Numbered from the stretch's first letter, positions 11,250 to 35,492 are shown. The stretch: DNA of 64,000 bases from Akkermansiaceae bacterium (GCA_044373465.1 JBILQE010000011.1:7523-71522), one strand, 5' to 3'. Notes: a model not told the origin generated them from the sequence alone. A program made the numbers and translations.

Positions 11250-11257
11250 GACGCGCG

Positions 11258-12712: not shown

Positions 12713-12734
12713 TCGGGAATGGCCTTTTCAAGGG

Positions 12735-15762: not shown

Positions 15763-15891
15763 GAGAGAAAGCTGCCCGGCAAATGGGACATTTGCAAGGC
15801 GTGAAGATTTCCGGCGGCTGGCAGTCAGGCCGCGTCGCGGAGCAGTGGCCCGGCCGAGCTAGGGCTCGGCGTTCCGCGTCTGGGGAAGGGA

Positions 15892-15907
15892 AGCGACTGA
15901 AGTCGCT
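15892..15907. promoter_or_regulatory. 7-2-7 inverted repeat AGCGACT-GA-AGTCGCT (copy 2)
   Basis: Read directly, 95 nt upstream of the kinase-like ATG at 16002. Confidence 0.4.
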
Positions 15908-15938
15908 ACTCCTTGGCGGTGATTTCGGGGTAAGAAAC

Positions 15939-16043
15939 TCCGCGGTGGCGGAATCGGCGGGATGGGGAATGTTGGGGGAACTTTTAACAATCCCCCCAAA
16001 CATGATCAGGAATTACCGGCTAGGAAAGTTGGCGTTGGCGACG
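15939..16043 (+). repeat. 105-bp direct repeat, copy 2 (authentic 5' UTR plus first 14 codons of the kinase-like gene)
   Basis: See 14303-14407. Confidence 0.9.
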
Positions 16044-17177
16044 ACGGGTGGCGGCGAGTTGCGCGCGTTGATTGACGCGGAGCTTGAGTCGATCGCGGTG
16101 AGTGGCGATGGCGTGGCGGCGGCGGTGGAGTTCAATTTCCCGGGCGAGTCGCCGGTGGCGGGTGCGGGTGCCGGGTATTTCAAGCCGGTGCGGGTGTGGG
16201 AGGGCGGGTATGTCGCGAGCCAGGGCGACATCGTCTACAAGGTCGAGCCGGGAGGTGGCGCGGCCGGGGCCGGCGGCGGGCGGACGCGGGTGAGCTTGCG
16301 CGCGCGGAAGCCGCGCGAGTCGTTGAAGCGGCGGATGTTGCCGGTCTGGCTGCGGCGCGCGCACCACTGGAACTACTTCACGCCGCTCGACGAGCAGGCG
16401 AAGGGGTTCATGTACAACATCTTCGATTATCTGACCCAGATCGCCAACCTGGACGCGGGGCAGACGTATGTGCACGCGAGCTCGTTTCGCAAGGGCGACC
16501 GGGGAGTGGGGATCTTTGCCTGGGGGGGGATCGGCAAGACCACGGCGATGCTCAAGATGGTCATGCAGGGCGGCTGGCAGTTTCTCAGCGACGACCTCGG
16601 GTTGCTTGATGCGGATGGCACTCTTTGGCGCTCGCCGAAGCGGATGCAGATCTACGCCTACAATTTGGTCGGCCAGCCGAAATTGCGCGCCGCGTTGATG
16701 CGCGACCGGAGCCTGCTTGACCGGTCGGCGTGGGAGTGGCGCCGGCTGCGTTACGGGACCCACCAGGTCCGGCGGCGGGTGTCGGCTGAGGAGTTGTTTG
16801 GGGTTGACGGGGTGGCGAAGTGCGCACCGTTGACCGACGCGTTGTTTGCCGAGCGGGTCGATGCCGAGACCTTCAGCTGCGTGGCGATGGCGCCGAAGCA
16901 GTTCAGCGAGCGCTGCGCGGCGATCGTGATGAGCGAGATCGAGCCGTATTCGGAGATCCTCACCGCGATCCAGGCCGCCGGGTTCTCCGAGCTGCTCCCG
17001 AGCTACCATGACCTGTTGACCCGCAGCCGCGAGATGCTTGCCAGCACCCTCGCGCGCCAGAACATCCAGCCGCTCCTCTGGCGGATCCCGAAACACGCCA
17101 GCCCGGAGGCGATCCACGACGACCTCGTGCGGATCCTCGCAAGCAGGAAGCCGGCGCGGCCGTCACCCGTGAATTGA
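16002..17177 (+). CDS. HPr-kinase-C-terminal-domain-like P-loop kinase (function unknown)
   Basis: ORF 15783..17177 trimmed to the ATG at 16002 (MIRNYRLGKL...). The core ...YVHASSFRKGDRGVGIFAWGGIGKTTAMLKMVMQGGWQFLSDDLGLLDADG... matches the HprK-like pattern hASxx...G.GxGKo(T/S)...G..hhSDD. It is the only plus-strand gene inside the minus-strand arm. Confidence 0.6.
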   Translation: MIRNYRLGKLALATTGGGELRALIDAELESIAVSGDGVAAAVEFNFPGESPVAGAGAGYFKPVRVWEGGYVASQGDIVYKVEPGGGAAGAGGGRTRVSLRARKPRESLKRRMLPVWLRRAHHWNYFTPLDEQAKGFMYNIFDYLTQIANLDAGQTYVHASSFRKGDRGVGIFAWGGIGKTTAMLKMVMQGGWQFLSDDLGLLDADGTLWRSPKRMQIYAYNLVGQPKLRAALMRDRSLLDRSAWEWRRLRYGTHQVRRRVSAEELFGVDGVAKCAPLTDALFAERVDAETFSCVAMAPKQFSERCAAIVMSEIEPYSEILTAIQAAGFSELLPSYHDLLTRSREMLASTLARQNIQPLLWRIPKHASPEAIHDDLVRILASRKPARPSPVN

Positions 17178-17219: not shown

Positions 17220-17927
17220 TCATGTACCAGTCGCATTCTCCCACGGGAAATCGGCACCGGCAGGTGCCGGAAACCCGAGGAAATCCGCCAGGGCGGCGTA
17301 GGCGCCCGGCGCGGCAACATTGAGGACCAGCAGCTTTCCGGGCCTGCCGCGGAACTGGTCGATGACCGCCTGGTTGTGGCGGAGGTAGTTTTGTTGGTAG
17401 AGGTCCGGATCGTAGAGGTCAGCCTGGCCGGTGACGCCGTAGACGAGCGTTTGCCCGTCCCAGCTCCAGCCGGGATAGCAATAGGTGTCGCCCTTGAGGT
17501 CCTCGACGGTCGGGAGCCGGCCTTTGTTGATCCGCTTGGTGGCGAAGCGGGTCACCGAGGCGAACCACTGCGCCGGACTGTCGCGCACCGTGAGGATGAA
17601 TTTTGCCCGCGGAAACGCCGCGTCGAGAACCGCGTGGGTCCCCGGCAGGCTGAACGGGACATCCTGGAAGGCATCGTAGAACCGGCAGAACCAGAGCAGG
17701 CGCCGGAAATCCCGCGCATCCCACTGGCGCAGCATTCGTTCCGCCGGCCATTGCGGCGCCACTTGGTACCCGAACCCGGCAAGCGCCTTGGCCAGCGATG
17801 TCGTCCCGGTCTTGTTGCGCCCGACACAGAACACCGGCTCCGCGGCACCCAGCGACGCGCGCCCGCGCACCACCGCCCCGGCCAAATGCCGCGCCAGACG
17901 CAGCCAGCTGATGCTCTGGTCACTCAC
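17220..17927 (-). CDS. Sulfotransferase family protein (P-loop, Sulfotransfer_4-like)
   Basis: FCVGRNKTGTTSLAKAL is a 5'-PSB-like loop, and ILTVRDSPAQWFAS is an RDP..W..S-type 3'-PB-like block. The ORF extends to 18119, but that part reads through a repeat element. The in-frame GTG at 17927 (VSDQSISW...) is taken as the start, so the start is uncertain. Confidence 0.6.
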   Translation of the reverse strand: MSDQSISWLRLARHLAGAVVRGRASLGAAEPVFCVGRNKTGTTSLAKALAGFGYQVAPQWPAERMLRQWDARDFRRLLWFCRFYDAFQDVPFSLPGTHAVLDAAFPRAKFILTVRDSPAQWFASVTRFATKRINKGRLPTVEDLKGDTYCYPGWSWDGQTLVYGVTGQADLYDPDLYQQNYLRHNQAVIDQFRGRPGKLLVLNVAAPGAYAALADFLGFPAPAGADFPWENATGT

Positions 17928-17936
17928 GCTTTTTGT

Positions 17937-18035
17937 GGAGCGAACTTTTTGTGTAGCGAACTTTGTGAAAAGTTCGGCGGGGTCAAGCGTCTCCCGCCAG
18001 AACGCCCGAACGCGCAAGCGACCTCCCGCCTCCTC
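17937..18035 (+). repeat. REP-A element copy a (GTAGCGAAC family), forward
   Basis: gagcgaactttttgtGTAGCGAACTTTGTGAAAAGTTCGGCGGGGtcaagcgtctCCCGCCAGAACGCCCGaacgcg... shares its 5' two-thirds with copies d-g. The 3' part is divergent. Confidence 0.85.
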
Positions 18036-18149
18036 CAGTGTTGGACTTGCCGAGGGCGCAACCCGTTGGGGTAGATGATTTTTTTGGGGGGCCATTCCCA
18101 GGGTAGGCGGGTACGCCAACCCTGGGCTTCGGGGCGAAACCGCGCTGCG

Positions 18150-18373: not shown

Positions 18374-19411
18374 TCACGCGCGGCGGTGGCTGAGCAGAGC
18401 GAGGAGCAGGCTGCGCGGCGGGATGAGGAGGATGACGGCCTGGTAGCGGAGCATCTCGAGCAGCCGGGCGGGACTGCGCCACGGATGCCGGAACGTCCCG
18501 GTGAGTGCCCGGAGGAATTCCCGGAGGTATTTTTTGCTCTGGGGAAAGTCGCCTACGCTCAGCGAGCTCGATAGCGCCCGCCAGGATGCGAAGGCGAGCC
18601 CGAGGCTGGCTTCCAGGACGGCGTCCGGGTGGATACTGTGCATGATCGCGCGGGTCGTCTTGACGAGTTCAGCGCGCCGGCCGTCGGCCGAGCGGGCGGA
18701 CCAAACGCCGCCGGGATGCTGGCGGTAGGCGCCCATGGACCCGCCGACCTGGTGCATTTCCCCGTGGCGCGACATCATCGCAAACAGAAACAAGTCGCCG
18801 GTGACCAGCGGTTCGGGCGGCAGGGGAATTGGCAGGTTGCGAAACACAATCGAGAGCGTCGGGATGAACGCCCGGCGGATCTGCGGGAAGCACTTCAGCT
18901 CGCGGGCCTGGTTGATCCGCCCGTAGGCGAGCATCTGCGATGGCGCCAACACCACCTTGTTCGCGTCAACACCGGCCACATCATGGAATGTCAGCGCCAC
19001 CTCGGGGTGCTTGCGCAGGTAGCCGACCTGCAACTCAAGCTTGCCCGGGTCTGTCCAGTAGTCGTCACCCTCGCAGGCGGCAAGGAACTCGCCGCGGGCC
19101 ATGGCGCGCAGTTGGGGGGCAATGCGGATCCCCTGGGAATACTGGTTGGTCTCCTGCAGGACGGCCCGAATGACGTCCGGATGTCTCGCTTGATACTCGC
19201 GGATGATCTCGGCGGTTGCGTCGGTCGACGCGTCGTCATGGATGATAATCTCAACGGGAAAGCTCGTCTCCTGCATCAGGAACCCTTCGATGGCGTCCCG
19301 AATGAACCCTGCGTGGTTGTACGTCGCGCAGCAGATGCTCAGCGTCGGCACCGTGCCCGCCGGCCAAGCCTGCGCGCGCACGGGCAGCGGATCGGGGGCG
19401 GCGCTCATCAT
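18374..19411 (-). CDS. Glycosyltransferase family 2
   Basis: LSICCATYNHAGFIRDAIEGFLMQETSFPVEIIIHDDASTD is a classic GT2 N-terminal Rossmann block with the DxD region. 345 aa; 4-nt overlap with the downstream GNAT gene. Confidence 0.85.
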   Translation of the reverse strand: MMSAAPDPLPVRAQAWPAGTVPTLSICCATYNHAGFIRDAIEGFLMQETSFPVEIIIHDDASTDATAEIIREYQARHPDVIRAVLQETNQYSQGIRIAPQLRAMARGEFLAACEGDDYWTDPGKLELQVGYLRKHPEVALTFHDVAGVDANKVVLAPSQMLAYGRINQARELKCFPQIRRAFIPTLSIVFRNLPIPLPPEPLVTGDLFLFAMMSRHGEMHQVGGSMGAYRQHPGGVWSARSADGRRAELVKTTRAIMHSIHPDAVLEASLGLAFASWRALSSSLSVGDFPQSKKYLREFLRALTGTFRHPWRSPARLLEMLRYQAVILLIPPRSLLLALLSHRRA

Positions 19412-19998
19412 TCTTCCGGGTCGACAACCTTCAGATAGGGCTCAAAGGCGCCGCGCTGGGCGTCAAACTCGCAGCGCAGCACGCTCATGACGATCACGTC
19501 GTGGAACTTCCCATGCGCAAAAATCTCACTGCGCAACACCCCGTCGCGGGTTGCGCCGAGCCGCTTCGCAATCCTCAGCGGCAGGGGGTTGTCTTTCCGG
19601 ATCTTGGTGTAAATCTTGTTGAGGTTCAGCGCTTGGTGGAGGTGGTCAAGCGCCACGACAACGGCTTCAAAACCGTGGCTAAGTCCCGCGGGCTCACCTA
19701 TGCCGATGTAAACTTCCGCCTTGGCGTTGGGCACATCAATATCGCGGAAGCCAACGTAGCCGACTGGCTGGCAATTTTCTTGAGTGTGGATGATCAGATC
19801 CAGCCGGGTCGGGTCATTGGCGAGCTTTTCGGTCCACAGACGGGTGGATTCCTCGGAGATCGCTGCGGGCAGGTTGAGCTTCCGCCCGATCTCCTCGGAG
19901 TTCATCCAGCGGGTGCGGATGGCGACAAACTCCTCGGCCATCGGGACCAGGAAAATGTGCCTTCCCTCGATGAAATTCGTTCCTGGACTGAGCATCAT
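19408..19998 (-). CDS. GNAT family N-acetyltransferase (RimJ/RimL-like)
   Basis: 196 aa. ...VGYVGFRDID..AEVYIGIGEPAGLSHGFEAVVVALDHLHQALNLNKIYTKIRKDNPLPLRIAKRLG... is a GNAT fold pattern. Confidence 0.75.
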   Translation of the reverse strand: MMLSPGTNFIEGRHIFLVPMAEEFVAIRTRWMNSEEIGRKLNLPAAISEESTRLWTEKLANDPTRLDLIIHTQENCQPVGYVGFRDIDVPNAKAEVYIGIGEPAGLSHGFEAVVVALDHLHQALNLNKIYTKIRKDNPLPLRIAKRLGATRDGVLRSEIFAHGKFHDVIVMSVLRCEFDAQRGAFEPYLKVVDPEE

Positions 19999-19999
19999 T

Positions 20000-21205
20000 T
20001 CAATCGGCTTCCGTCGCCGGCACTCGCTCGACTGACTGCGGGCGACTCAAGCAAAGATCGGCAAAGTGGGCAATCCTCTCGCAGACACGGACAACATCCT
20101 CGGTGCTCACCGCGGTGCCGGTTGGCAGCACCAGCACTTGCTGGCAGAGCTTGTCAGTCGCCGGCAGCGTGGGAGCCGTCGCCTGGCGTGAGACATACGG
20201 TTCCATCCGGTGGCAGCCGGGGAAGAAATACCGGCGGACAAAGATATCCTCCGCATGCAGCGCCGCCATCAGCTCGTCGCGGTTGAAGCCCGCTTCCGCG
20301 GCGTCAATCTCGAGGATCACGTACTGCTGGTTGCTCTCGCCAATCCCCTCGTAGGCATAAACTCTCACGCCGGCCAAGGCGCCCAGCCGGCTCTGGTAGT
20401 GGCTGAAATTCCGCCGGTTGGCTGCCGTGATGGCATCCAAGCCGGCAAAGCACGCCAGCCCCATGGCGGCGTGGATCTCGGACATTTTCGCGTTGGTCCC
20501 AAGGTCCTCGACGCAGTCAAACCCGCTGAAGCCAAAGTTGATCATCAGCCGGATCCGCGCCGCGAGCGCATCGTCGTTGGTCGCGATCGCCCCGCCTTCC
20601 GCGGTGTTGAAAAACTTCGTCGCGTGAAAACTGAACACCTCGCAGCGGCCAAAATTGCCGATCATCTTCCCCCCGTGGCGACAGCCAAACGCATGCGCCG
20701 CATCAAAATACAGCTCCAACCCGTGGCGCTGCGCAATTTCCTCGAGCCGCTCCGGATGGCACCCGCGGCCCCACGTGTGGACCCCGAGAATCGCGCTCGT
20801 CCGTGGCCCGATCAGGCGCTCGACCGCCTCCGGATCCAGTAGATGAGTCACCGGATCAATCTCGCAAAATACCGGCTCCACACCCTGCCAGCGCACCGAG
20901 TGCGCCGTGGCCACAAACGTGAAGGCCGGCATGATCACCTCCCCGGTTAGCTCCAGCGCCTGGCATACCACCTGCAATCCCAGCGTCGCATTGGCCACCG
21001 GAATGCAGTGGCGCACCCCGAGGTACCCGCACAGTTCCGCCTCGAGTTGTTGGACCAACGGCCCGTTGTTGGTTAGCCAGCGCCGCGCAAACATCCCGTC
21101 AACCAGCGCATCAAACACCGCACGCTCACCCAGGTTCGGCCGCCCAACAAATAGCGGGCTTCCGCGCTCAGGCACTGGCGCAACTGGCTTGATCACTTGA
21201 CTCAT
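20000..21205 (-). CDS. DegT/DnrJ/EryC1/StrS-family PLP-dependent sugar aminotransferase
   Basis: FSFHATKFFNTAEGGAI is the PLP-lysine block, with family-typical blocks throughout. The ORF extends to a GTG at 21265 (GTGA overlap with the upstream stop). I prefer the ATG at 21205 because 21228-21252 is a copy of a short hairpin repeat that is otherwise intergenic. Confidence 0.85.
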   Translation of the reverse strand: MSQVIKPVAPVPERGSPLFVGRPNLGERAVFDALVDGMFARRWLTNNGPLVQQLEAELCGYLGVRHCIPVANATLGLQVVCQALELTGEVIMPAFTFVATAHSVRWQGVEPVFCEIDPVTHLLDPEAVERLIGPRTSAILGVHTWGRGCHPERLEEIAQRHGLELYFDAAHAFGCRHGGKMIGNFGRCEVFSFHATKFFNTAEGGAIATNDDALAARIRLMINFGFSGFDCVEDLGTNAKMSEIHAAMGLACFAGLDAITAANRRNFSHYQSRLGALAGVRVYAYEGIGESNQQYVILEIDAAEAGFNRDELMAALHAEDIFVRRYFFPGCHRMEPYVSRQATAPTLPATDKLCQQVLVLPTGTAVSTEDVVRVCERIAHFADLCLSRPQSVERVPATEAD

Positions 21206-21261
21206 TGGACGCGTTCGATCTTGGGCTGGCCGAGCTGGGGCTCGGCGTTCCGTTCCGTCTG

Positions 21262-22221
21262 TCACCCCAGCCGGAGGACGATGTCTTTGTAGCCGCTAAC
21301 TCCGATGGCCGGCTGCAGCCACTCTGGGGCGACGGGTTCTCCGCGCGCCCAGGCGACGAGTGCGGCGGGCACGTTGGCGCCGGCCAGATGTTGGAATGGA
21401 TAGTCGCCGGTGAAGCGCGGGTTGATATCGAGAACGTAACAAACGTCGTTGGACACGATCATATCGATCCCCCAGATGCCCGCATGGTTGGTTAGCCCGG
21501 CGAGCTTGGCGGCAAGCGCGGCGAACTGCTGCGGGTCGACGGTGGTGGCGCGGTCCGACTCGCCGGCGCGCATTGAATCAACCCTGCAGGCAAAGGTCGC
21601 CCTTGGAACCCCGGCGAGATCGTTGACCAGGTTGAGCCGGAATTCGGTACCGACGACAAATTCCTGGAAAATCCGCGGCGCCTCGGCCGCTCGATCTGCC
21701 GCCCCCCAGCACTCAAGCTCCTGCCTGCTCCGGCAGACCCGCAGCCCACCTGAGCCAAACCCGCTGCGCTCCTTGATGACGATTGGCAAGCGGATCTCCC
21801 CGGAGTCAAGCGCGGCTAGCGTCTCGCTCAGCGATGGACTCGTCCACGGGCTGCTTATCCCGTGGCTGCGCAAAAATTGCTGGCACTCTAACTTGTCGAG
21901 GCAGCGTTGCGCCCAGCGCGCGTCCGGCAGGGTGCTCGCGGCGCGGGCAAACCCGCCGCCGAACTGCGCGAGCACCGTGGTGTCCAGGTCATGGAGCGAG
22001 CAGAGCAGGCCGATCTCATGGGTCGCGCAGATCTGCGCGATGCTTTCCGCGTATCCCGCGCTCGCCACCGGCGCGACCACCAAGGCCACGTCGGCCACCT
22101 GCATTCCGGCCGCCTGCGCATGGCTGTTAGTGACCACCACCTGGCCGGTCCCGCCGAGCGCCTGGCGAAAGTAGTCAACCAGATAGGCGCGGCGTCCGAC
22201 GCATGTTAGCAACACGTTCAT
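21262..22221 (-). CDS. ATP-grasp domain enzyme (carboxylate-amine ligase type)
   Basis: 319 aa. MNVLLTCVGRRAYLVDYF... is a pre-ATP-grasp region, then ...LPIVIKERSGFGSGGLRV...FQEFVVGTEF...WGIDMIVSNDVCYVLDINPRFTG, an ATP-grasp pattern. Confidence 0.75.
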   Translation of the reverse strand: MNVLLTCVGRRAYLVDYFRQALGGTGQVVVTNSHAQAAGMQVADVALVVAPVASAGYAESIAQICATHEIGLLCSLHDLDTTVLAQFGGGFARAASTLPDARWAQRCLDKLECQQFLRSHGISSPWTSPSLSETLAALDSGEIRLPIVIKERSGFGSGGLRVCRSRQELECWGAADRAAEAPRIFQEFVVGTEFRLNLVNDLAGVPRATFACRVDSMRAGESDRATTVDPQQFAALAAKLAGLTNHAGIWGIDMIVSNDVCYVLDINPRFTGDYPFQHLAGANVPAALVAWARGEPVAPEWLQPAIGVSGYKDIVLRLG

Positions 22222-22241
22222 TCGCGGTCGGAGGAAGAAGG

Positions 22242-22382
22242 ATTGACCGCGGAGAAGCGGAGGCAGCGGAGAGACGCGGAGGACAGCCGGAATAAGGAAT
22301 CAGCGCATCAGGCACTGGTGCTCATTTTGAAGCTAATCTTAAGATTCTTCTCCGCGTCCCTCCGCTTCTCCGTTTCTCCGTG
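22242..22382. repeat. REP-B element copy A (CGGAGAAGCGGAGG hairpin family)
   Basis: Arms 22248-22285 (cggagaagcggaggcagcggagagacgcggagga) and 22347-22380 (cttctccgcgtccctccgcttctccg...) are mutually complementary. 22242-22286 is the exact reverse complement of 23330-23374. Confidence 0.85.
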
Positions 22383-22402
22383 GTAAGTACCATCATCGCC
22401 CA

Positions 22403-23125
22403 TTAGACCGGCGACTCCCTCGGAAGTTCCAGTTGGCCGGCGAGCACGTGGGACCGCGCTTCGGCCCGGGACGCGCGCATGATGAGGTCGAGGATCGAGA
22501 GGCTGGGGATGAACTCGGCGCTGGCCTGCGGATAGGGACGCAGGACGGGATCGACAAACCTCAATGTTAGTCCGTTCTGCGCAAATTCCGCATGCCTATA
22601 CAGGTGGCGCCCGCCGCCGGAGTTGACATAGGTGGTTGCCCGTTCCTGGCGGCAGATATCAAACAACCGGGCGGTCCCGCGGAGGTGGGCGTTGGCGTAG
22701 CCGGTCGAGGTTTCCACAATCTCGACCGGGAGCCGGAGCCAGCGGCAGATTTCGCGGATGCTCCGCGCGTTGATCGCCGAGATCGGCGCGTCCGGGTCGC
22801 TGAGCCACTCGCCCAACATCGGGAAGATCTCCGCGAAGTTGCGCGCATCGTGGTACCCGTGGGTCACTGTCTTGAGAAACCTCCGCCGCCACGCCCGGAA
22901 CCCGTCCGCCGGGCGAAACTCGTGGATCCTCGCGGTGTGCGGGTGGCGTCGCAGCGGAATCGAAAACTCGTGGCGCTCCCCGCCCATCAGGACCGTGTTG
23001 CTCGCGATCCACCCGCCTTTGATGAACTGCACATCGTCGGCCAAGACCATCTTGTCCACCGCCGCGAGCAACTGGAAATACCCCAGATACGGGAGGAAAT
23101 ACGGCTGCATGATCCCGAGGCGCAT
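22403..23125 (-). CDS. WbqC-like family protein
   Basis: ORF 22403..23215 trimmed to the ATG at 23125. MRLGIMQPYFLPYLGYFQLLAAVDKMVLADDVQFIKGGWI.N... is the characteristic WbqC-family N-terminus as I recall it. Confidence 0.75.
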   Translation of the reverse strand: MRLGIMQPYFLPYLGYFQLLAAVDKMVLADDVQFIKGGWIASNTVLMGGERHEFSIPLRRHPHTARIHEFRPADGFRAWRRRFLKTVTHGYHDARNFAEIFPMLGEWLSDPDAPISAINARSIREICRWLRLPVEIVETSTGYANAHLRGTARLFDICRQERATTYVNSGGGRHLYRHAEFAQNGLTLRFVDPVLRPYPQASAEFIPSLSILDLIMRASRAEARSHVLAGQLELPRESPV

Positions 23126-23129
23126 TGCC

Positions 23130-23482
23130 GAGGAGGGAGTCGAAGGTCGGGGGGCGGCCGGTAGGGCGATGCGTCTCCGCAGCGCCCGCGCATGAAGCCG
23201 CCGATGCTTATGCAATGAACGGACGGCAGACTTCCCATGGGCATCCCATCCTCACCCCATGCGCCGGGCGTCGGGACCCACCGAGAAGCGGAGAAAAATC
23301 CAGGTTTCGCTTTAGAATGAGAACAAGCGCTGTCCTCCGCGTCTCTCCGCTGCCTCCGCTTCTCCGCGGTCAATCCGTCAGGTCGAAGGGATCATTGAGG
23401 AGGCTTCGCGCGCGAGCAATGGCGGTTCATTCGTGGGCGCTGCGGAGACGCATCGCCCTACCGGGCCTTCGACTCCTCCCTC
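23130..23482. mobile_element. 353-bp inverted-repeat-bounded, MITE-like intergenic element (no ORF)
   Basis: The left arm 23130-23187 (gaggagggagtcgaaggtcggggggcggccggtagggcgatgcgtctccgcagcgccc) is the imperfect reverse complement of the right arm 23435-23482. The interior contains REP-B copy B (about 23281-23374). It fills the whole wbqC/LbH intergenic gap. Confidence 0.45.
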
Positions 23483-24152
23483 ACTCGCCAATCTCGCGAA
23501 TGACCTTGCACGGGTTGCCGAAGGCGAGCACCCCCGGGGGAATGTCGCGGGTCACGACGCTGCCGCCGCCGATGATGCTGTTGGCGCCGATTTTGATGTT
23601 GTCGAAAACCACCGCGCCGATGCCGAGTTGGACCGCCTCGCCGAGGTCGCACTGGCCGGCGACATGGGCGCCCGGGTTGACCGAGACGAAGCGTCCGAGG
23701 CGCGTGTGGTGGCCGATGGTGCACCCGCGGTTAAGGGTGACGCCGAAGCCGATCTCGGCAAACGCCGAGACGACCACCCCGGGTTCGAAATAACTTCCGC
23801 GTCCGACCCGCGCACTCGAGGCAATGAACGAGTGCGGCGACACCAGCGTCCCAAAGTCATCCTCGCCCAACGGCTGCGCCGCCGCAAAAAGCTCCAGCAC
23901 CGTCCGCTTCCCGCCCGGCTTCGCCAGCGCAAACCCAAGCCGGTCGCCCCCGCGGGCAAACGTCCAGTCCGCCAGCGCGACCCGCTCGTACCTAACTGCC
24001 GGATGGGCGAACGCCACCTCGTCGCGCGCCGGGATGTTCTCGATGATCCTAACAGGCCCGGCGGCTTTGTTGGCCGCGAGGGTCTCAAAGATCAGAGCCA
24101 GAATGTTCCCGCTGAACCCCAGGAACACGTTCGGTGTTGTAGTATCCTCCAT
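23481..24152 (-). CDS. NeuD/PglD-type hexapeptide (LbH) sugar N-acyltransferase
   Basis: The N-terminal Rossmann-like ...NVFLGFSGNILALIFETL is followed by LbH repeats ...IGHHTRLGRFVSVNPGAHVAGQCDLGEAVQLGIGAVVFDNIKIGANSIIGGGSVVTRDIPPGVLAFGNPCKVI. ATG at 24150-24152 (a TTG at 24158 is also possible). Confidence 0.8.
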   Translation of the reverse strand: MEDTTTPNVFLGFSGNILALIFETLAANKAAGPVRIIENIPARDEVAFAHPAVRYERVALADWTFARGGDRLGFALAKPGGKRTVLELFAAAQPLGEDDFGTLVSPHSFIASSARVGRGSYFEPGVVVSAFAEIGFGVTLNRGCTIGHHTRLGRFVSVNPGAHVAGQCDLGEAVQLGIGAVVFDNIKIGANSIIGGGSVVTRDIPPGVLAFGNPCKVIREIGE

Positions 24153-24954
24153 TGCCAAATTCCTTTGCGGTTAGAAGCGGCCGCTCGTGGAGCTTGCGCA
24201 GCTGGTGGACCCGCTCCAACAGCGCGAGGTTGGTGGCGAGGCGGGTCCGGCGGGCGTCCAACCAGAGGTTGTCCTCGAGGCCGACGCGGACGCCGAGGCC
24301 GAGGGCGACGGCGACGCTGTTGACCCGCCACTGGAACCGGCCGATGCCGCCGAGGGCGACGGTTGCGCCGGCGGGGAGCGCCTGGGTGAGCGCGGCGATT
24401 TCCTGGACGTTGGCCTGGGCGCCGGCAACGTTGCCAAAGATCAGGTTCCAGTAGCTGGGGCCGGTGAGGATCCCCTTGCCGAGCAGATATTTCCCGTAGT
24501 TGACCATCCCCAGGTCAAAGCACTCGAGCTCAGGGTGGACGCCAAACGCGCGCATCTTTGCGGCGAGCGTCTGGATCGTCTGCGGCGCGTTGAGCGACGC
24601 CTGGGTGGGAAAATTCAGCGACCCGAGCGTCAGCGAGCACATGTCCGGGCGCAGCTCGATGACCGCGCCGCGCCGCTCGACGTCCTGGACATCGCGCCCC
24701 GACGTGCTCGCGCAGATGACCAGCTCCGGGCAATGGCGCCGGACGCCGGCAAAGATCTCGGCATAGACATCCGGTTTCCAGGTCGGCGCGCCGGCGGCGT
24801 CGCGCGCGTGAAGGTGGGCGATGGTGATCCCGAGCTCATTGGCCTGGTGGACCTGTTCGATGATCTCCTGCGGATGGACCGGCACATGCGCCGACTCATC
24901 TTTCCCGGGGACCATCCCGGTCGGACAAAAGTTGATGAGCAGCGGGGGATTCAT
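24085..24954 (-). CDS. BKACE family enzyme (3-keto-5-aminohexanoate cleavage enzyme-like, DUF849)
   Basis: ORF 24085..25143 trimmed to the ATG at 24954. MNPPLLINFCPTGMVPGK...HVPVHPQEIIEQVHQANELGITIAHLHARD...PELECFDLGM...GVRVGLEDNLWL... is colinear with the BKACE family, including the HxH and GLEDN blocks. The 3' end overlaps the next gene by 68 nt. Confidence 0.85.
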   Translation of the reverse strand: MNPPLLINFCPTGMVPGKDESAHVPVHPQEIIEQVHQANELGITIAHLHARDAAGAPTWKPDVYAEIFAGVRRHCPELVICASTSGRDVQDVERRGAVIELRPDMCSLTLGSLNFPTQASLNAPQTIQTLAAKMRAFGVHPELECFDLGMVNYGKYLLGKGILTGPSYWNLIFGNVAGAQANVQEIAALTQALPAGATVALGGIGRFQWRVNSVAVALGLGVRVGLEDNLWLDARRTRLATNLALLERVHQLRKLHERPLLTAKEFGNGGYYNTERVPGVQREHSGSDL

Positions 24955-25025
24955 GGGGAAAAGTGAGCAGTGAGCAGACCGGTCTGATGAAGCAGTGGGA
25001 AGTGGGTAGATCCGATCAATCAAAA

Positions 25026-25889
25026 TCACTCCAACAACCGGAGCAGGTAGCCGGCGTAGGTCGTCTCGCCGAGGTCGGCGGCGGCGGCGCGCAGGTCCTC
25101 TGCGCTGAGCCAGCCGTTGCGCCAGGCGATCTCCTCGAGGCACGCGACCTTGAACCCCTGGTGGTGCTCGATGGTCCGGACAAACTGCGAGGCCTCCAAC
25201 AGCGAGTCCGGCGTTCCGGTATCCAGCCAGGTGTGGCCGCGGCCGAGAATCTCGACATGGAGGTCGCCGCGCTCGAGGTAGGCGCGGTTGACGCAGGTGA
25301 TTTCCAGTTCGCCGCGTGGCGACGGTTTGACCGCCTTGGCGATCTCGACCACGTCGCGGTCATAGAAATACAACCCGGTGACGGCCAGGTCCGACTGCGG
25401 GTGGGCCGGCTTTTCCTCGATCGACAGCGCGGTGCCGTTAGAATCGCAGGCGACGACCCCGAAGCGCTGCGGGTCGTGGACCTGGTAGCCGAAGATCGTC
25501 GCGCCGCGCGCGCGCGCCGCCGCCGCCTGGAGCTTTGGCGAGAACCCCTGGCCGTAAAAAATGTTGTCCCCGAGGATCAGCGCGCAGCGGCCGCCGGCGA
25601 TGAATTCCTCACCTAGCAGAAACGCCTGCGCCAGCCCGTCGGGCCGCGGCTGGGCCACATAACTCAGGGATATCCCGAAGCGCCCGCCATCGCCTAGCAG
25701 CCGCTGATAGAGCGGCAGGTCCTCCGGGGTCGAGACGAGCAGGATCTCGCGGATGCCGGCAAGCATCAGCACCGAGAGCGGATAGAAGACCATCGGCTTG
25801 TCATAGACCGGCAGCAGCTGCTTGCTCACCGCAAGCGTGCTCGGGTAGAGCCGCTTGCCGGATCCGCCGGCGAGGATGATGGCTTTCAT
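25026..25889 (-). CDS. rfbA: Glucose-1-phosphate thymidylyltransferase
   Basis: ORF trimmed to the ATG at 25889. [55 protein letters not shown]... is a textbook RfbA/RmlA sequence. Confidence 0.92.
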
Positions 25890-25892
25890 GGG

Positions 25893-26027
25893 CGTAGCGA
25901 ACTTCTTGCGTAGCGAACTTTGTGAAAAGTTCGGCGGGGAGAACTGCCTGCCGCCAGAACGCCCGAACGCGCTAAGGACTTCCAACCTTCCCCCGCCGCA
26001 GCTACAAAACGCGACGAACCTCGCTAC
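25893..26027 (+). repeat. REP-A element copy d
   Basis: cGTAGCGAACTTcttgcGTAGCGAACTTTGTGAAAAGTTCGGCGGGGagaactgCCTGCCGCCAGAACGCCCGaacgcgctaaGGACTTCC...gaacctCGCTACg. It fills the rfbB-rfbA gap and overlaps the rfbB stop codon. Confidence 0.9.
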
Positions 26028-27067
26028 GCAACGCCGCCGCGGCGGGCCAGCGCCGGAGTGGCGGCGATGAGCGGCTGCCACCAGCCAGGATTGTCCAAGT
26101 ACCAGGCGACGGTCTGGCGGATGGCGGCATGCGGGTCGCGGGTCGGCTGCCAGCCGAGGTCACGGCGGATTTTCGCCGGGTTGATCGCGTAGCGGTGGTC
26201 GTGGCCCGGGCGGTCGGCGACCAGGCGGATTTGTTGGGCGTACCCCTGGCCGTCTGGGCGCGGGCGGAGTTCGTCGAGGATCGCGCAGAGGTGATTGACG
26301 AGGTCGATATTCCGCCACTCGTTGTTGCCTCCGATCGCGTAGGTCTCTCCCGGGGTCCCGCGCTCGGCGACGGCCAACAGCGCCGCGGCGTGGTCACCGA
26401 CAAACAACCAGTCGCGGACGTTCTCGCCGGTCCCGTAGACCGGCAGCTGCTCGCCGCCGAGCGCCTTGAGAATCGTTAGCGGAATGAGTTTCTCGGGGAA
26501 CTGGTACGGGCCAAAGTTGTTAGAGCAGTGGGTGACGACCACCGGGATGCCGAACGTCGTGTGCCAGGCGCGGGCGAGGTGGTCGGACGCCGCCTTGCTG
26601 GCCGAGTATGGCGAGTGCGGCTGATAGGGGCTGTGTTCATCGAACGCGCCGGTCGGCCCGAGCGAGCCGAAGACCTCGTCGGTGGAAACGTGGACAAAGC
26701 GGAACCCGGGGTCCGGCTGGGATGTTAGAAATGTCCGGGTAGCTTCCAACAACGTGAACGAGCCGACGATGTTGGCCTGGATGAAGGCGGCCGGGCCGTC
26801 GATGGAGCGGTCGACATGCGACTCGGCGGCGAGGTGGATGAGCCGCTGCGGGCGGAAGCCCGCGAAGGCCGAGTGGACGGCCTGGGCGTCGGCGATGTCG
26901 GCGTGGCGGAACTGATAGGCCGGGTGGTTTTCGAGGTCGGCGAGCGACGCGCGGTTGCCGGCGTAGGTGAGTTTGTCGACGTTGAGGACCTGGTGGCCGT
27001 GGGCGACGAGGAGCCTGACGAGGTTGGAGCCGATGAATCCGGAGCCGCCGGTGACGAGGATGCGCAT
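26024..27067 (-). CDS. rfbB: dTDP-glucose 4,6-dehydratase
   Basis: [20 protein letters not shown]...DKLTYAGN...[11 protein letters not shown] (YxxxK)...; colinear with RfbB/RmlB. 347 aa. Confidence 0.92.
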
Positions 27068-27243: not shown

Positions 27244-29166
27244 TCAGCGGGCCGGCGTGGCAAGCAGGGCGAGAAACGCCGGGACCAGCCGGAGGCTGCC
27301 GCGGACGCTGAGATGGTTGGAATCCCGGAAAAACACCCCGTCGCTGTCGGCCACCTGGACGAGTCCGGAGGAATCGCAGAGGGCGGGAAGCGGGTCGAGG
27401 AAGTCGAGCCCGGCAGTGCCGGTGAGAGAAGCGAAGATCGTGTCCTGCGGTGTGACGTCGTGGCGGTGCTCGGCGGCGGTGAACGAGACGCCGAGGGCGT
27501 CCCAGCCGAACATTTCCTTGAGGGCGGTGCTTTGCGGGACGTTCTTCGGCAGGCTGGGGACCTCGCGGAGAATCGTGACCTGGCAGCCGCAGGCGCGGAG
27601 GTCGTCGATGGTGCGCTTGAGTGCGGCGGCGAAGCGCCCGTCGGCGTCCGCCTGGGTGTAGGCGCGCCAGCGGGCGACGAGGATGACCCGCTCGATCGGC
27701 GCAGTTGCCGCGGCGGCGCGGATGTGGTCGAGGACCGCCTGGTTATACGCCGGGGCGCGCTCGCTCAGGCCGAAGTGGTGGACGAAATACCAGCCGAGGA
27801 CCGGGGCGGTGGCGGAGGCGGTTGCCGCCTCGGCGCGGATGCCGGCTTGCTTGCAGGCGGCGTCGATGGCTGGGAGGACTGCCATCGCGTGGCTGTCGCC
27901 CCAAACGAAGATGCGCCGGGTGGCGGCGGGATCGCCGACGGTGGTGAGGTTCTGCGGGATGTCCTCGCGGCGCATCAGCCGGTCATACGGGTTGGCCGCC
28001 GCCCCGCCGGCAAACATGAGCGCCTCGGCCGACAACCGCTGCGGGAACCCGCCGGACCCCCAAACGGTCGTCGCCTGCAGCGCCAGCGCCACCCCGGCGA
28101 GCGCCGCCAGCGCAAATGTCCGGCGCGGCGATTGACCGCTGCGCCGGCCGCGAAACGGCCGCTCGACAAACCGTAACGACAGCCAAGCAAACCCGAGCGC
28201 CACCACCACCAGCGCGCCGCTCAGCGCGTGCGAGTCGAGCCCGAGGCCAAGATAGCGGCGCAGCGCCAACAGCGGCCAGTGCCAGAGGTAGAGCGAGTAG
28301 GAAAGCAACCCGAGAGCCACCAGCGGCGCCCACCCGAGGAGCCGGTGGGCGCTCGAGCGCGGCGACCCACCCGCATCCGGGATGCCGCTCCAGATGAGCA
28401 AGACGGCGCCAAGCACCGGCGGCAGCGCTGCGAGCCCGGGAAACCGCGTGTCCTGTGAATACCACCCGGCGGCCACCGCGATCGCCGCCAACCCGGACCA
28501 CCCCATCACCTCGCGCAGCCCGCGCCGCGCAACCGGCCCGGCAAACGCCAGCAGCCCGCCGGCCGCCAGTTCCCACGCCCGCGTCGGCAGCAGGAAGAAG
28601 CTCGCCTTCGGAATCCGTGGAACCAGGATGATCGCCAGCGCCAAGCTCGCGACCACCCCGAGCGCCAGCAGCGGCGCGCACCAACCGGCCCGCCGGATCC
28701 GGAACAAGCCGATGAGCAGCAGCGGGATGAATAGGTAAAACTGTTCCTCGAGCGAGAGCGACCAGGTGTGGAGCAGCGGTTGCTGTTCGGCGGCCGCGCC
28801 AAAATACCCGGTCTCGCGCCAAAACCACAGGTTCGCCGAAAATCCCAGCAGCGCCAATACCTGCTTCCCGAGGTCCTCCAAGTGCTCCGGCAGCAGCACG
28901 ATGCTCCCGACGACGAGCACCGTGGCGACCATCACCGTCAGCGCCGGCAAGATCCTCCGCGCCCGGCGTTCCCAAAAGTCCCACAAGGAAAAGGTTCCTG
29001 ACCGCAAGTCTTTGATGATCAGACTTGTAATCAGGAACCCGGAAATCGCGAAAAACACATCCACCCCGACATAGCCGCCCGTCACGCCCAGCCCGGCGTG
29101 GAAGAGGACCACGCTGAGGATGGCTACCGCACGCAGGCCGTCGATGTCGCGCCGGTAGGTGAGCAT
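27244..29166 (-). CDS. AT3-SGNH fused O-acyltransferase (OafA/YrhL-like)
   Basis: ORF trimmed to the ATG at 29166. MLTYRRDIDGLRAVAILSVVLFHAG is an AT3 N-terminus, followed by about 10 TM segments and a C-terminal SGNH-like domain (IFVWGDSHAMA ... FRDSNHLS). Confidence 0.85.
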   Translation of the reverse strand: MLTYRRDIDGLRAVAILSVVLFHAGLGVTGGYVGVDVFFAISGFLITSLIIKDLRSGTFSLWDFWERRARRILPALTVMVATVLVVGSIVLLPEHLEDLGKQVLALLGFSANLWFWRETGYFGAAAEQQPLLHTWSLSLEEQFYLFIPLLLIGLFRIRRAGWCAPLLALGVVASLALAIILVPRIPKASFFLLPTRAWELAAGGLLAFAGPVARRGLREVMGWSGLAAIAVAAGWYSQDTRFPGLAALPPVLGAVLLIWSGIPDAGGSPRSSAHRLLGWAPLVALGLLSYSLYLWHWPLLALRRYLGLGLDSHALSGALVVVALGFAWLSLRFVERPFRGRRSGQSPRRTFALAALAGVALALQATTVWGSGGFPQRLSAEALMFAGGAAANPYDRLMRREDIPQNLTTVGDPAATRRIFVWGDSHAMAVLPAIDAACKQAGIRAEAATASATAPVLGWYFVHHFGLSERAPAYNQAVLDHIRAAAATAPIERVILVARWRAYTQADADGRFAAALKRTIDDLRACGCQVTILREVPSLPKNVPQSTALKEMFGWDALGVSFTAAEHRHDVTPQDTIFASLTGTAGLDFLDPLPALCDSSGLVQVADSDGVFFRDSNHLSVRGSLRLVPAFLALLATPAR

Positions 29167-29176
29167 GGATGGGGGC

Positions 29177-30571: not shown

Positions 30572-30736
30572 CGGCGCGCTTTTCACCGCCGCCGGTGATC
30601 CGCTCACCGCCGCCATTGATTTTGTCTTCGAGTTTGCTGCAGACATTGACTTGGTTTTTCTAATTTTTTTCCCGGCTCCCCGGGTCCGATCCTCCGCTGA
30701 AAATCCTCCCACTCTCCCTCCGCTGGTAGATATTTG

Positions 30737-30756: not shown

Positions 30757-31178
30757 GCCGGGTTTTTTCCCGGCACGCTGCGGGCCGCGGATCAACCGCT
30801 TTATCTAACCACGCTGCCGCCCGCGGTCGCTTCCCGTGGACGGGAAAACCTTCAGATGGAATCAGTTAGGCGGTCGGGGCGGTGGCCGGCTTGCACCGGC
30901 GCGCGCAGGGAAAAAAACTAGCCAGGACTCACTGCGGGGGGCGCCCGCCCTGAAATCCGCCACTCCGCCCCTGCGCGGGAGTGCCGTGGCCTAGCTGAAC
31001 AAACCCGCCGCGGTTGTTCAAGAAATTTTGAACGCCGCCATGGCCTTCGGGTTAGCCGGATTTTAATTTAAATCGGCTTGATTTTGTTAGGCCCGCAGGG
31101 TTTCAGATAGACCCTGAAATTTTTGCGAGTTCCGGCTGTTGAGCATTTGATGCTGGGCAGTTGGAGGGTTCCGGCGGG

Positions 31179-34524: not shown

Positions 34525-34637
34525 TGCGGGTTTGACAGATTGCTTCGGACTACTAAGCTGTCATCTGCCAGTTGGCAGTGGCTTGCCGGCGCCCTCCGTG
34601 AAGCCGTGCCGTCTTGATTTCATCCACCTCCTAGTTC

Positions 34638-35435: not shown

Positions 35436-35492
35436 ACCTCCCAGCGAAGCGACCGCGACCACCTTTCCTGCAACCTTTCCGCCCATCTGACC

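Follow-up and report, generated by a model that had tools for sequence, protein, structure and literature searches.

Locus and gene content

Eight genes on the minus strand, from rfbB to a GNAT gene (19408–27067), form a sub-cluster embedded in a ~37-kb Wza/Wzc-type polysaccharide locus. The locus lies in a 64,000-nt stretch of DNA from an Akkermansiaceae bacterium, the whole of which is referred to here as the window. The features considered are as follows.

26024–27067, minus: rfbB, dTDP-glucose 4,6-dehydratase (TIGR01181; Pfam GDP_Man_Dehyd and Epimerase)
25026–25889, minus: rfbA, glucose-1-phosphate thymidylyltransferase (TIGR01207; Pfam NTP_transferase)
24085–24954, minus: BKACE (PF05853, 2e-74)
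23481–24152, minus: LbH (hexapeptide-repeat) acyltransferase of the VioB/PerB/PglD class (Hexapep, 3.7e-14)
23130–23482, no strand: intergenic inverted-repeat element of ~353 nt between the LbH and WbqC genes
22403–23125, minus: WbqC-family protein (PF08889, 5.1e-58)
21262–22221, minus: ATP-grasp carboxylate-amine ligase with a PylC-like N-terminal domain (ATP-grasp_3, 8.7e-17; PylC-like_N, 4.2e-16)
20000–21205, minus: DegT-family aminotransferase, DesI/VioA-like (PF01041, 2.2e-100)
19408–19998, minus: GNAT N-acetyltransferase, Acetyltransf_3 (PF13302, 2.3e-12)
18374–19411, minus: GT2 glycosyltransferase (PF00535, 6.2e-16)
29177–30712: Ugd, identified among the scanned ORFs

The eight families and their order had been set out in an original prediction, with which the Pfam and NCBIfam HMM matches agree. 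RfbB scores 446.7 bits against TIGR01181 (equivalog cut-off 365.1; GDP_Man_Dehyd, 7.5e-84) and RfbA 463.3 bits against TIGR01207 (equivalog cut-off 360.65; NTP_transferase, 1.6e-70). A scan of 198–45316 that covered ORFs of at least 120 aa revealed no protein resembling RfbC, RfbD or a cupin ketoisomerase, in line with the predicted absence of rfbC, rfbD and a 3,4-ketoisomerase. Third-position GC is 0.77–0.85 across the five genes from BKACE to DegT and lower, 0.75, in the GNAT gene. The region is best explained as the nucleotide-sugar tailoring part of the Wza/Wzc-type locus.

The BKACE active site

BKACE matches PF05853 (DUF849) with 250.8 bits (cut-off 24.8), covering profile positions 1–267 of 274. 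It also matches four NCBIfam BKACE models, in each case with a score under the cut-off. The best of these, 3-oxoadipate:acetyl-CoA acetyltransferase (NF053568), was rejected as an assignment, the score of 202.9 bits lying far below the equivalog cut-off of 350. Kce (NF052387) was likewise rejected, given a score of 201 bits vs 382, the replacement of Glu14 by Val, and neighbours that are glycan rather than lysine-fermentation genes.

The catalytic metal ligands, on which the predicted function depended, are retained. In an alignment to Kce (2Y7D), the motifs AHLHARD, GLEDN and PELECFD match VIHLHIRE, GFEDN and PEVEVYE, keeping the HxH and Glu zinc ligands (Kce His46, His48 and Glu230) and the catalytic Glu143. 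No variation occurs at H47, H49, E227 or E144 in the alignment of the subfamily, whose members are 57–74% identical to this BKACE, and the Ser and Arg of Kce are kept as well. Phe (F146), also invariant in the subfamily, stands in place of Kce Tyr145, through which canonical enzymes have been proposed to contact the CoA sulfur. Because the closest solved homologues (3NO5, 3FA5 and 3CHV) carry Phe there as well, this residue may be compatible with canonical cleavage.

Family chemistry converts a β-keto acid and acetyl-CoA into acetoacetate and an acyl-CoA (bioRxiv 10.1101/205583). Canonical members (Kce, the 3-oxoadipate and dehydrocarnitine enzymes, and one converting ketodeoxyribonate to glyceryl-CoA) share with the present protein the Pfam family, TIM-barrel fold relatives, zinc ligands and catalytic Glu. 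They differ from it in having the amine-binding Glu14 and Tyr145, in the model cut-offs that it fails to reach, and in their catabolic setting, as opposed to a biosynthetic one paired with an acyltransferase. BsfD, the BKACE of flavophos biosynthesis, C-acetylates and decarboxylates without acyl-CoA release; encoded in a phosphonate gene cluster, it carries a ~20-residue insertion with Arg91 for its phosphonate substrate (bioRxiv 10.64898/2026.01.15.699783). It resembles the present enzyme as a biosynthetically recruited BKACE with Phe at the Tyr145-equivalent position, whereas the latter aligns to 3NO5 and Kce without a BsfD-type insertion and resides in a glycan locus. Acyl-CoA formation by BKACE in this locus is a candidate activity.

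A BKACE–acyltransferase cassette

An acyltransferase gene lies within 300 nt of the BKACE gene in 32 of the 49 loci where identity to this BKACE exceeds 40%, compared with 1 of the 34 where it is 40% or lower. Within ~5 kb the former count rises to 38 of 49, with 11 clade members having no nearby acyltransferase. At 54% identity or more, every BKACE has an LbH gene no further than 1 kb away, and in 10 of the 12 loci the two genes abut or overlap. The partner is an LbH in some loci and a GNAT-like protein of 213–239 aa, unrelated to LbH, in others; either gene order occurs, with overlaps of 4–65 nt. Fusion proteins were also found, comprising ten representative GNAT–BKACE proteins in both domain orders, a BKACE–aldo/keto-reductase fusion, and one BKACE–DegT fusion with an LbH as its neighbouring gene. 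The co-occurrence with DegT and LbH genes that the original prediction proposed to look for extends to contiguous DegT–LbH–BKACE runs in Methylopumilus and Limnocylindrales genomes and to a cluster of the three genes in Syntrophorhabdus. BKACE–acyltransferase adjacency spans about ten phyla, GT2 genes are frequent neighbours of the BKACE–LbH pair in other genomes, and the BKACE-adjacent LbHs mostly group together in a neighbour-joining tree. BKACE and its acyltransferase are a conserved unit that recurs over many phyla. From genome comparison, a functional coupling of BKACE and LbH, as predicted, is strongly supported by this adjacency, by partners of two unrelated acyltransferase folds, and by the fusions.

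Overlap of the two genes by 68 nt was reproduced with the LbH start at ATG 24152; gene calls in close relatives instead imply GTG 24128, which reduces it to 44 nt. Because BKACE residues 267–273, which the subfamily conserves, fall within it, the overlap is genuine dual coding. BKACE is also kept in syntenic relatives rather than being absent from them, as a passenger gene might be: a 74% identical relative (L001) has the same six-gene block, and relatives at least 90% identical (L088–L090) are syntenic over the full locus.

Other instances of the cassette are smaller or differently placed. Minimal cassettes, consisting of BKACE–LbH alone or with GT2, have no gene obviously making a special β-keto acid, and BKACE–LbH–WbqC stands by itself, without DegT, in L002–L004. 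Cassettes outside recognisable glycan or amino-sugar contexts occur in L002, where an SDR gene lies two genes upstream in divergent orientation; in L014, where the BKACE–GNAT pair neighbours an arginine decarboxylase gene and a deoxyhypusine-synthase-like gene; in L019, where the pair neighbours a peptidase gene; and in L096, where a thiolase gene adjoins a GNAT–BKACE fusion. By blastn, a DNA-level search that would miss divergent genes, a low-GC BKACE–LbH pair (L007) matched none of 5,426 complete E. coli genomes. The original view of the eight genes as one pathway does not survive these comparisons, which point instead to a portable BKACE–LbH(–WbqC) cassette beside a separately coupled ATP-grasp–DegT–GNAT–GT2 block.

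LbH, WbqC and the intergenic element

LbH reaches 128.1 bits against TIGR03570 (NeuD/PglB/VioB; subfamily cut-off 160.8), with the alignment limited to residues 85–218 and the N-terminal domain alignable only in part. Its top solved relatives are PerB (4EA7), PglB (4M98), VioB (7TXP) and PglD, and the catalytic His aligns (IGHHTRLG vs VDHDCRLG of PerB). Homology places it in the class of 4-amino-sugar N-acetyltransferases formed by PerB, PglB, VioB and PglD.

The WbqC-family protein matches PF08889 over its full length (196.9 bits vs cut-off 21.3), and its AF2 model has a pLDDT of 94.4; searches of the PDB by fold and by sequence gave no significant match and no solved relative. We know of no defined function for this family, which recurs beside BKACE–LbH and also beside DegT and LbH in flagellar gene neighbourhoods. 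Between the LbH and WbqC genes, the element at 23130–23482 has long terminal inverted-repeat arms of 39 nt (95% complementary) and 22 nt (82%), occurs once in the window, is present in the close relatives L088 and L090, and is missing from L001. Though it interrupts the cassette, it is probably outside the pathway.

The ATP-grasp–DegT–GNAT–GT2 block

For the ATP-grasp ligase, both the ATP-grasp domain (PF02655) and the N-terminal pre-ATP-grasp domain were matched; NF009404 gives 252 bits, below its cut-off of 316, and its nearest solved relative is 2PN1, whose PDB entry labels the protein a carbamoylphosphate synthase large subunit. Orthologues occur in polysaccharide loci with Ugd, in contexts that fit sugar aminoacylation and GlcA amidation alike; one in Halomonas has an Orn/Arg decarboxylase gene and Ugd nearby.

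By far the nearest solved relative of DegT is the C4 aminotransferase DesI (2PO3), which acts on dTDP-4-keto-6-deoxyglucose (E = 8.4e-110, 370.6 bits; next, 1e-47, 166 bits). The translation carries an SFHATK motif with the PLP Lys. TIGR04427 is the best NCBIfam model at 466.3 bits; as its equivalog cut-off is 650, the claim to DesI orthology is weakened, leaving that of C4 amination unaffected. These matches support the predicted site, and DegT is likely to aminate C4 of dTDP-4-keto-6-deoxyglucose. With GTG 21265 as an alternative start, DegT would overlap the ATP-grasp stop by 4 nt. The GNAT gene lies directly against DegT and shares 4 nt with GT2, and its product has weak similarity to PseH and SpeG. 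The four-gene block is translationally coupled, and GT2 is the likely transferase of the modified sugar.

Comparison with known systems

In the anthrose pathway of Bacillus anthracis (AntA–AntD), a DegT-type aminotransferase makes dTDP-4-amino-4,6-dideoxyglucose, an LbH acyltransferase N-acylates it with a non-acetyl acyl-CoA, and the same operon encodes a dedicated enzyme that prepares the acyl-CoA. That enzyme, AntA, is an enoyl-CoA hydratase acting on an existing CoA ester. To our knowledge, none of the anthrose genes encodes a WbqC, ATP-grasp or GNAT protein. The likeness, one of logic only, lies in the sugar, the LbH and the operon-encoded donor enzyme; here, a zinc-dependent BKACE would instead create the thioester from a free β-keto acid and acetyl-CoA, and WbqC, ATP-grasp and GNAT are present. 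No AntA-like crotonase-family enoyl-CoA hydratase was found among the proteins scanned at 198–45316.

The VioA/VioB pathway to dTDP-Qui4NAc shares RmlA, RmlB, a C4 aminotransferase and a VioB-class LbH with this locus. N-acyl-aminoacyl Qui4N sugars occur in E. coli O121, O123 and O49, and the substituents known on Qui4N include N-acetylglycyl, N-(3-hydroxybutanoyl)-D-alanyl and 3-hydroxybutanoyl (PMC7685785). Products of all these kinds could come from the present gene set. In Burkholderia glumae and Sideroxydans, DegT–WbqC–methyltransferase–LbH clusters similarly unite DegT, WbqC and LbH beside flagellin or flagellar genes, and their LbHs nest among the BKACE-adjacent LbHs in the neighbour-joining tree. 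Unlike the locus here, these clusters lack BKACE, ATP-grasp and GNAT genes and include extra methyltransferase and PhyH dioxygenase genes.

Proposed pathway and alternatives

By equivalog-level homology, RfbA and RfbB would give dTDP-4-keto-6-deoxy-D-glucose; close homology further suggests that the DesI-like DegT aminates C4 to yield dTDP-4-amino-4,6-dideoxy-D-glucose (dTDP-viosamine). The VioB/PerB-like LbH would N-acylate an amine of this sugar. BKACE would most likely act as its dedicated partner, converting a β-keto acid and acetyl-CoA into acetoacetate and a non-acetyl acyl-CoA for use by LbH and thereby activating the acyl group without ATP; this step draws on family chemistry and comparative-genomic coupling. 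Because two acyl-CoA-dependent acyltransferases accompany a single aminotransferase, the ATP-grasp ligase probably brings in a second amine, either as an amino acid on the sugar or its acyl group or as an amine on GlcA, and GNAT probably then acetylates this second amine. GT2 would then move the finished sugar. We give about an even chance to this reading, in which BKACE provides, or else modifies, a non-acetyl acyl group that LbH sets on dTDP-4-amino-4,6-dideoxyglucose. No paper linking a BKACE to glycan biosynthesis was found in the searchable literature, as the original prediction had supposed.

Some observations run against this proposal. BKACE has Phe for Kce Tyr145, as does BsfD, which releases no acyl-CoA; minimal cassettes carry no obvious gene for a special β-keto acid; some cassettes lie beyond glycan contexts and 11 of 49 clade members stand without a nearby acyltransferase; and LbH, with its partly alignable N-terminal domain, falls below the NeuD/VioB subfamily cut-off.

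The order of the two reactions could also be reversed, though we consider this rather unlikely. LbH (or a GNAT elsewhere) would add a malonyl-type group, a β-carbonyl acid, from the ubiquitous malonyl-CoA, whereupon BKACE would C-acetylate it with acetyl-CoA in the manner of BsfD, and decarboxylation would leave an acetoacetyl group with no free acyl-CoA released. Minimal cassettes would then require no extra supply of β-keto acid, and the invariant Phe would match that of the C-acetylating, decarboxylating BsfD, although its presence in 3NO5, 3FA5 and 3CHV suggests that it may also suit canonical cleavage. The acetoacetyl group could be reduced to 3-hydroxybutanoyl, a known Qui4N substituent in E. 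coli O49 and O123 (PMC7685785); the aldo/keto-reductase fusion and the SDR gene of L002 fit such a later reduction, and the thiolase gene beside a GNAT–BKACE fusion hints at C4 chemistry, but the sub-cluster itself has no reductase gene. Moreover, known BKACE substrates are all small free acids, and one bound to a nucleotide sugar or polymer would be unprecedented.

Less probable still is a scheme in which the BKACE–acyltransferase pair acylates an amino acid, a diamine, a polyamine or another amine that is not part of a sugar. Here, the target would be an amine-bearing substituent attached by the ATP-grasp ligase to the sugar or GlcA, with GNAT acetylating the Qui4N C4 amine. The BKACE–GNAT pairs and fusions outside glycan loci (L014, L019 and L096), the DegT-free cassettes of L002–L004, and the Halomonas ATP-grasp orthologue near a decarboxylase gene and Ugd are consistent with this scheme, as is a GNAT weakly similar to PseH, a 4-amino-sugar N-acetyltransferase, and translationally coupled to DegT. 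Against it, the nearest characterised relatives of LbH all act directly on NDP-4-amino sugars, DegT–LbH–BKACE is contiguous in several unrelated genomes, and the BKACE–DegT fusion has an LbH neighbour.

It is very improbable that BKACE is a passenger catabolic gene in a locus making only ordinary N-acetylated or aminoacylated viosamine: the literature and family models searched assign no reaction to its clade, most BKACEs with a characterised function serve in catabolism or natural-product pathways, and nearby acyltransferases are missing in 11 of 49 members, but the conserved dual-coding overlap, codon usage like that of neighbouring genes, synteny in relatives, adjacency in both gene orders over about ten phyla, and fusion proteins argue otherwise.

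If the BKACE–LbH pair works as proposed, a 4-amino sugar of the surface polysaccharide would carry an unusual acyl group derived from a dedicated acyl-donor enzyme.

Gene Content of the Sub-Cluster and Its Polysaccharide Locus

The amino-sugar sub-cluster consists of eight minus-strand genes (19408-27067) followed by a GT2 gene. [quoted passage not shown]

Genes of the sub-cluster and the GT2 gene that follows
26024-27067, minus strand, rfbB (NCBIfam equivalog)
25026-25889, minus strand, rfbA (NCBIfam equivalog)
24085-24954, minus strand, BKACE (Pfam)
23481-24152, minus strand, LbH acyltransferase (Pfam)
22403-23125, minus strand, WbqC-family protein (Pfam)
21262-22221, minus strand, ATP-grasp ligase (Pfam)
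20000-21205, minus strand, DegT aminotransferase (Pfam)
19408-19998, minus strand, GNAT acyltransferase (Pfam)
18374-19411, minus strand, GT2 glycosyltransferase

The 68-nt overlap of the BKACE and LbH genes described earlier holds if LbH starts at ATG 24152; with GTG 24128, the start chosen by the gene callers of near-identical relatives, it is 44 nt. Since BKACE residues G267, G270, Y272, and N273, all conserved across the subfamily, lie inside this overlap, both reading frames are constrained. The ATP-grasp/DegT (if DegT starts at GTG 21265), DegT/GNAT, and GNAT/GT2 pairs abut or overlap by 4 nt, and third-position GC is 0.77-0.85 in all five genes from BKACE through DegT. A ~353-nt element (23130-23482) with long terminal inverted repeats, whose arms measure 39 nt (95% complementarity) and 22 nt (82%), occupies all of the space from the LbH stop codon to the WbqC start codon. 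Present once in the window and shared by close relatives L088 and L090, it is absent from comparison locus L001, in which 5 nt separate LbH from WbqC; the element is a MITE-like insertion or else a large hairpin. Scanning 17-28 kb for promoters, terminators, and Rfam families returned nothing above background.

The sub-cluster sits within a ~37-kb polysaccharide locus, which also encodes four GT4 glycosyltransferases.

Other genes of the polysaccharide locus
35436-37691, Wzc-like kinase
34635-35435, Wza
31161-33221, WecA/WbpL-type initiating transferase
29177-30712, Ugd
27244-29262, AT3-family O-acyltransferase with a fused SGNH domain
17220-18119, Sulfotransfer_4 protein
14437-15363, SDR epimerase/dehydratase
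3801-4868 and 6141-7166, polysaccharide pyruvyl transferase and second AT3-family acyltransferase

Given the pyruvyl transferase and the two AT3 genes, the product is likely a heavily decorated acidic heteropolysaccharide. As originally noted, RfbC, RfbD, and a cupin ketoisomerase are missing among the ORFs of at least 120 aa in this locus. Five large ORFs (369-497 aa; 7163-12727 and 15783-17177) had no Pfam match even at E = 0.1; their third-position GC is 0.73-0.84, and Wzx, Wzy, or ligase-type membrane proteins are presumably among them. The Sulfotransfer_4 gene lies near BKACE-LbH-GT2 here, and another is similarly near these genes in an unrelated Wzm/Wzt-type locus (L092, 6298-6948); this could reflect sulfation of the polymer or coincidence.

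Features of the BKACE Protein

The original prediction hinged on an intact BKACE metal site. Alignment with Kce (2Y7D), the canonical BKACE of lysine fermentation, confirmed that the His-x-His and Glu zinc ligands and the catalytic Glu, Ser, and Arg are all retained, and these residues are invariant across 21 aligned subfamily members. Against NCBIfam models, the protein scored 203 for 3-oxoadipate cleavage (cut-off 350), 201 for Kce (cut-off 382), and lower for two others; falling below all four matched cut-offs, it is by this measure not orthologous to any BKACE with an NCBIfam model. Kce Glu14, which binds the substrate amine, is replaced by Val. Kce-type function is rejected on score, on this substitution, and on gene context. 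Kce Tyr145 is replaced by Phe. In canonical BKACEs, this Tyr is thought to touch the CoA sulfur, and Phe occupies the position in BsfD of flavophos biosynthesis, which C-acetylates and then decarboxylates its substrate without releasing an acyl-CoA (bioRxiv 10.64898/2026.01.15.699783). The three solved BKACEs most similar to the window protein (3NO5, 3FA5, and 3CHV) have Phe as well, so the substitution does not settle the chemistry.

Pairing of BKACE and Acyltransferase Genes across Genomes

The association of BKACE with acyltransferases is robust and broad. At locus L001, a 74%-identical BKACE occupies an identical six-gene block (BKACE-LbH-WbqC-ATP-grasp-DegT-GNAT) with rfbA ahead of it, and three closer relatives (L088-L090, ≥90% identical) retain Wza ... 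WbpL-Ugd-AT3-RfbB-RfbA-BKACE-LbH-WbqC. BKACE is thus kept in syntenic relatives, and the possibility raised earlier that it is a passenger gene is rejected on synteny, gene overlap, and the fusion proteins described below.

For a wider view, a subfamily profile was searched against one genome per GTDB species, and the best 80 of at least 590 matches, a non-random sample, were annotated with HMMs derived iteratively from the window proteins. Where BKACE shared >40% identity with the window protein, an acyltransferase gene lay within 300 nt in 32 of 49 loci and within ~5 kb in 38; at 40% identity or less, one of 34 loci had such a gene at either distance, counts from which divergent partners may have escaped since the HMMs were seeded from the window. 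LbH is the usual partner; at least eight loci carry instead a GNAT-like protein (213-239 aa) unrelated to it. Either gene can come first, and overlaps of 4-65 nt are seen. The carriers belong to Bacteroidota, Verrucomicrobiota, Planctomycetota, several proteobacterial orders, Desulfobacterota, Chloroflexota, Actinomycetota, KSB1, and Omnitrophica. Among the 49 loci, 12 have a DegT gene within 6 kb of BKACE (contiguous as DegT-LbH-BKACE, for example, in one Methylopumilus and one Limnocylindrales genome), six combine the pair with WbqC, and GT2 genes are frequent neighbors. In a neighbor-joining tree of LbH proteins, computed without support values, most BKACE-adjacent members fall into two of three main clades. 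The window LbH belongs to one of these and two BKACE-less, WbqC-linked LbHs from flagellar regions to the other; the majority of distant or BKACE-free LbHs are either in the third clade, which is mixed, or outside.

Two loci lie outside this pattern. At L014 (1623-3319), a 50%-identical BKACE adjoins genes for a pyruvoyl-dependent arginine decarboxylase and a deoxyhypusine-synthase-like protein and has no acyltransferase nearby, a polyamine setting left unexplained by the glycan model. A Providencia alcalifaciens BKACE (L051, 9992-10862) was uninformative and does not belong to an O-antigen locus: it is frameshifted into two ORFs in a non-glycan neighborhood and flanked by further split genes (gamma-glutamyltranspeptidase and MFS transporter), which indicates pseudogenes or assembly errors. 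A DNA-level blastn search of E. coli genomes with a low-GC BKACE-LbH pair gave no match.

Fusion Proteins

A search of 1.84 billion cluster representatives, with Pfam run on the long matches, retrieved 177 representatives (50% clustering) at E ≤ 1e-30 to the window BKACE. Ten of the long matches are GNAT-BKACE fusions (P0381, P0391, P0398-P0402, P0409, P0413, and P0428), eight with GNAT at the N-terminus and two at the C-terminus. One BKACE-DegT fusion (P0403) adjoins an LbH gene, P0417 joins BKACE to an aldo/keto reductase, and a more distant BKACE is fused to a class I/II aminotransferase (P0477). The fusions derive from metagenome gene calls; ten GNAT-BKACE examples in both domain orders and in separate 50%-clustering representatives argue against artefact. 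At L096 (101-2946), a GNAT-BKACE fusion gene is immediately preceded by a thiolase gene, a possible hint of acetoacetyl or C4 chemistry tied to this clade.

Adjacency in both orders, partners of two unrelated folds, and repeated fusion together argue that BKACE and acyltransferase form a functional unit, and it is difficult to account for the tie to sugar aminotransferases in any other way.

Predicted Chemistry

Beyond family membership, we infer all functions described here. The closest solved relative of DegT is DesI (2PO3), the C4 aminotransferase of dTDP-4-keto-6-deoxyglucose (371 bits, compared with 166 for the second), and its top NCBIfam model is the DesI equivalog, albeit below the cut-off (466 vs 650). 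With the SFHATK lysine motif also present, this similarity makes C4 amination, the position favored originally, the best-supported reading, with dTDP-viosamine (dTDP-Qui4N) as the product. The nearest solved relatives of LbH (PerB, PglB, VioB, and PglD) are all N-acetyltransferases of NDP-4-amino sugars, and its catalytic His aligns with theirs; LbH scores below the NeuD/VioB subfamily cut-off, with residues 85-218 alone matching that model.

Both types of partner use acyl-CoA and canonical BKACEs make it, so the simplest model is that BKACE feeds the acyltransferase. BKACE would convert a beta-keto acid and acetyl-CoA to acetoacetate and a new acyl-CoA, from which LbH would acylate the sugar amine, releasing CoA. 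We give this sequence of steps about an even chance. C4 keto or hydroxy acyl, glyceroyl, and dicarboxylic acyl groups can be named only as guesses; a preprint on deoxyribonate catabolism describes a BKACE that makes glyceryl-CoA (bioRxiv 10.1101/205583).

In the leading alternative, the order of the two enzymes is reversed: the acyltransferase would add a malonyl-type beta-carbonyl acid, which BKACE would C-acetylate and decarboxylate in the manner of BsfD to give an acetoacetyl group. Such a route dispenses with a special beta-keto acid and agrees with Phe at the Tyr145 position, with the aldo/keto reductase fusion, and with the thiolase gene at L096, but it demands a bulky substrate unprecedented for the family, and we consider it rather unlikely. 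Acylation of a non-sugar amine by the pair, here whatever the ATP-grasp ligase attaches, appears improbable, even though some pairs adjoin polyamine, peptidase, or thiolase genes and BKACE-LbH-WbqC can occur alone.

ATP-Grasp, GNAT, and WbqC

A second amine is probably introduced and then capped, since one DegT is set against two acyl-CoA-dependent acyltransferases and an ATP-grasp ligase. Qui4N substituents of this type include N-acetylglycyl in E. coli O121 and N-(3-hydroxybutanoyl)-D-alanyl in E. coli O123 and Salmonella O58 (PMC7685785). Two contexts of ATP-grasp orthologues (45-50% identical) are informative: RmlB-RmlA-DegT-LbH-ATP-grasp-Wzx-GT2 in Psychrobacter, with Ugd also in the locus, and, in Halomonas, a locus that carries Ugd together with an Orn/Arg decarboxylase gene. 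Both roles first proposed for the ligase, sugar aminoacylation and GlcA amidation, are possible by these contexts.

WbqC also occurs apart from BKACE: in Burkholderia glumae and Sideroxydans (L086 and L087), it is part of DegT-WbqC-methyltransferase-LbH clusters that neighbor flagellin or flagellar genes. Its AF2 model (pLDDT 94.4) had no Foldseek match in the PDB at E < 0.001; the best was BshC (4WBD, E = 0.076, rmsd 17 Å), followed by weak matches to nucleotidyltransferase/cytidylyltransferase, class I tRNA-synthetase, and E1-like folds, and a profile search of PDB sequences found no match. A nucleotide-binding or adenylate-forming fold is offered as an unproven lead.

Relation to Known Systems and Significance

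In anthrose biosynthesis, dTDP-Qui4N is acylated by an LbH whose special acyl-CoA is made by an enzyme encoded in the operon. The pathway logic predicted for the sub-cluster resembles that of this system and of VioA/VioB; the putative donor-making enzyme here differs from that of anthrose in family and chemistry. Consistent with the original remark, whose author was not aware of a characterized glycan pathway using BKACE, a literature search found no BKACE in glycan biosynthesis, and the words acetyltransferase, acyltransferase, aminotransferase, and hexapeptide are absent from the NetSyn preprint on BKACE genomic contexts.

Taken jointly, the gene pairs and fusions suggest a widespread, uncharacterized two-enzyme cassette of BKACE and acyltransferase, found in about ten phyla and sometimes as one polypeptide, that would use a beta-keto acid and acetyl-CoA, independently of ATP, to decorate amino sugars and other amines with a new acyl group. 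It would yield a class of N-acyl substituents for glycans, or a way of making known ones such as 3-hydroxybutanoyl or glyceroyl, and the frequently co-occurring WbqC would be an enzyme whose fold has no solved relative. The odds of this reading being right seem to us evenly balanced.

Non-acetyl N-acyl groups on bacterial amino sugars affect antigenicity and phage and immune recognition, and for many of them we know of no established acyl-donor source. If BKACE feeds or edits such a group, this would be the family's first biosynthetic role in glycan assembly. A function would be assigned to a BKACE clade that is both large (177 representatives) and phylogenetically broad, and testable partners are provided for the hitherto uncharacterized WbqC family. 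A BKACE gene adjoining an LbH or GNAT gene would offer a simple genomic marker for unusually acylated glycans, and the cassette, if the joint reading is true, would supply the genetics of N-acyl substituents that currently lack assigned genes.
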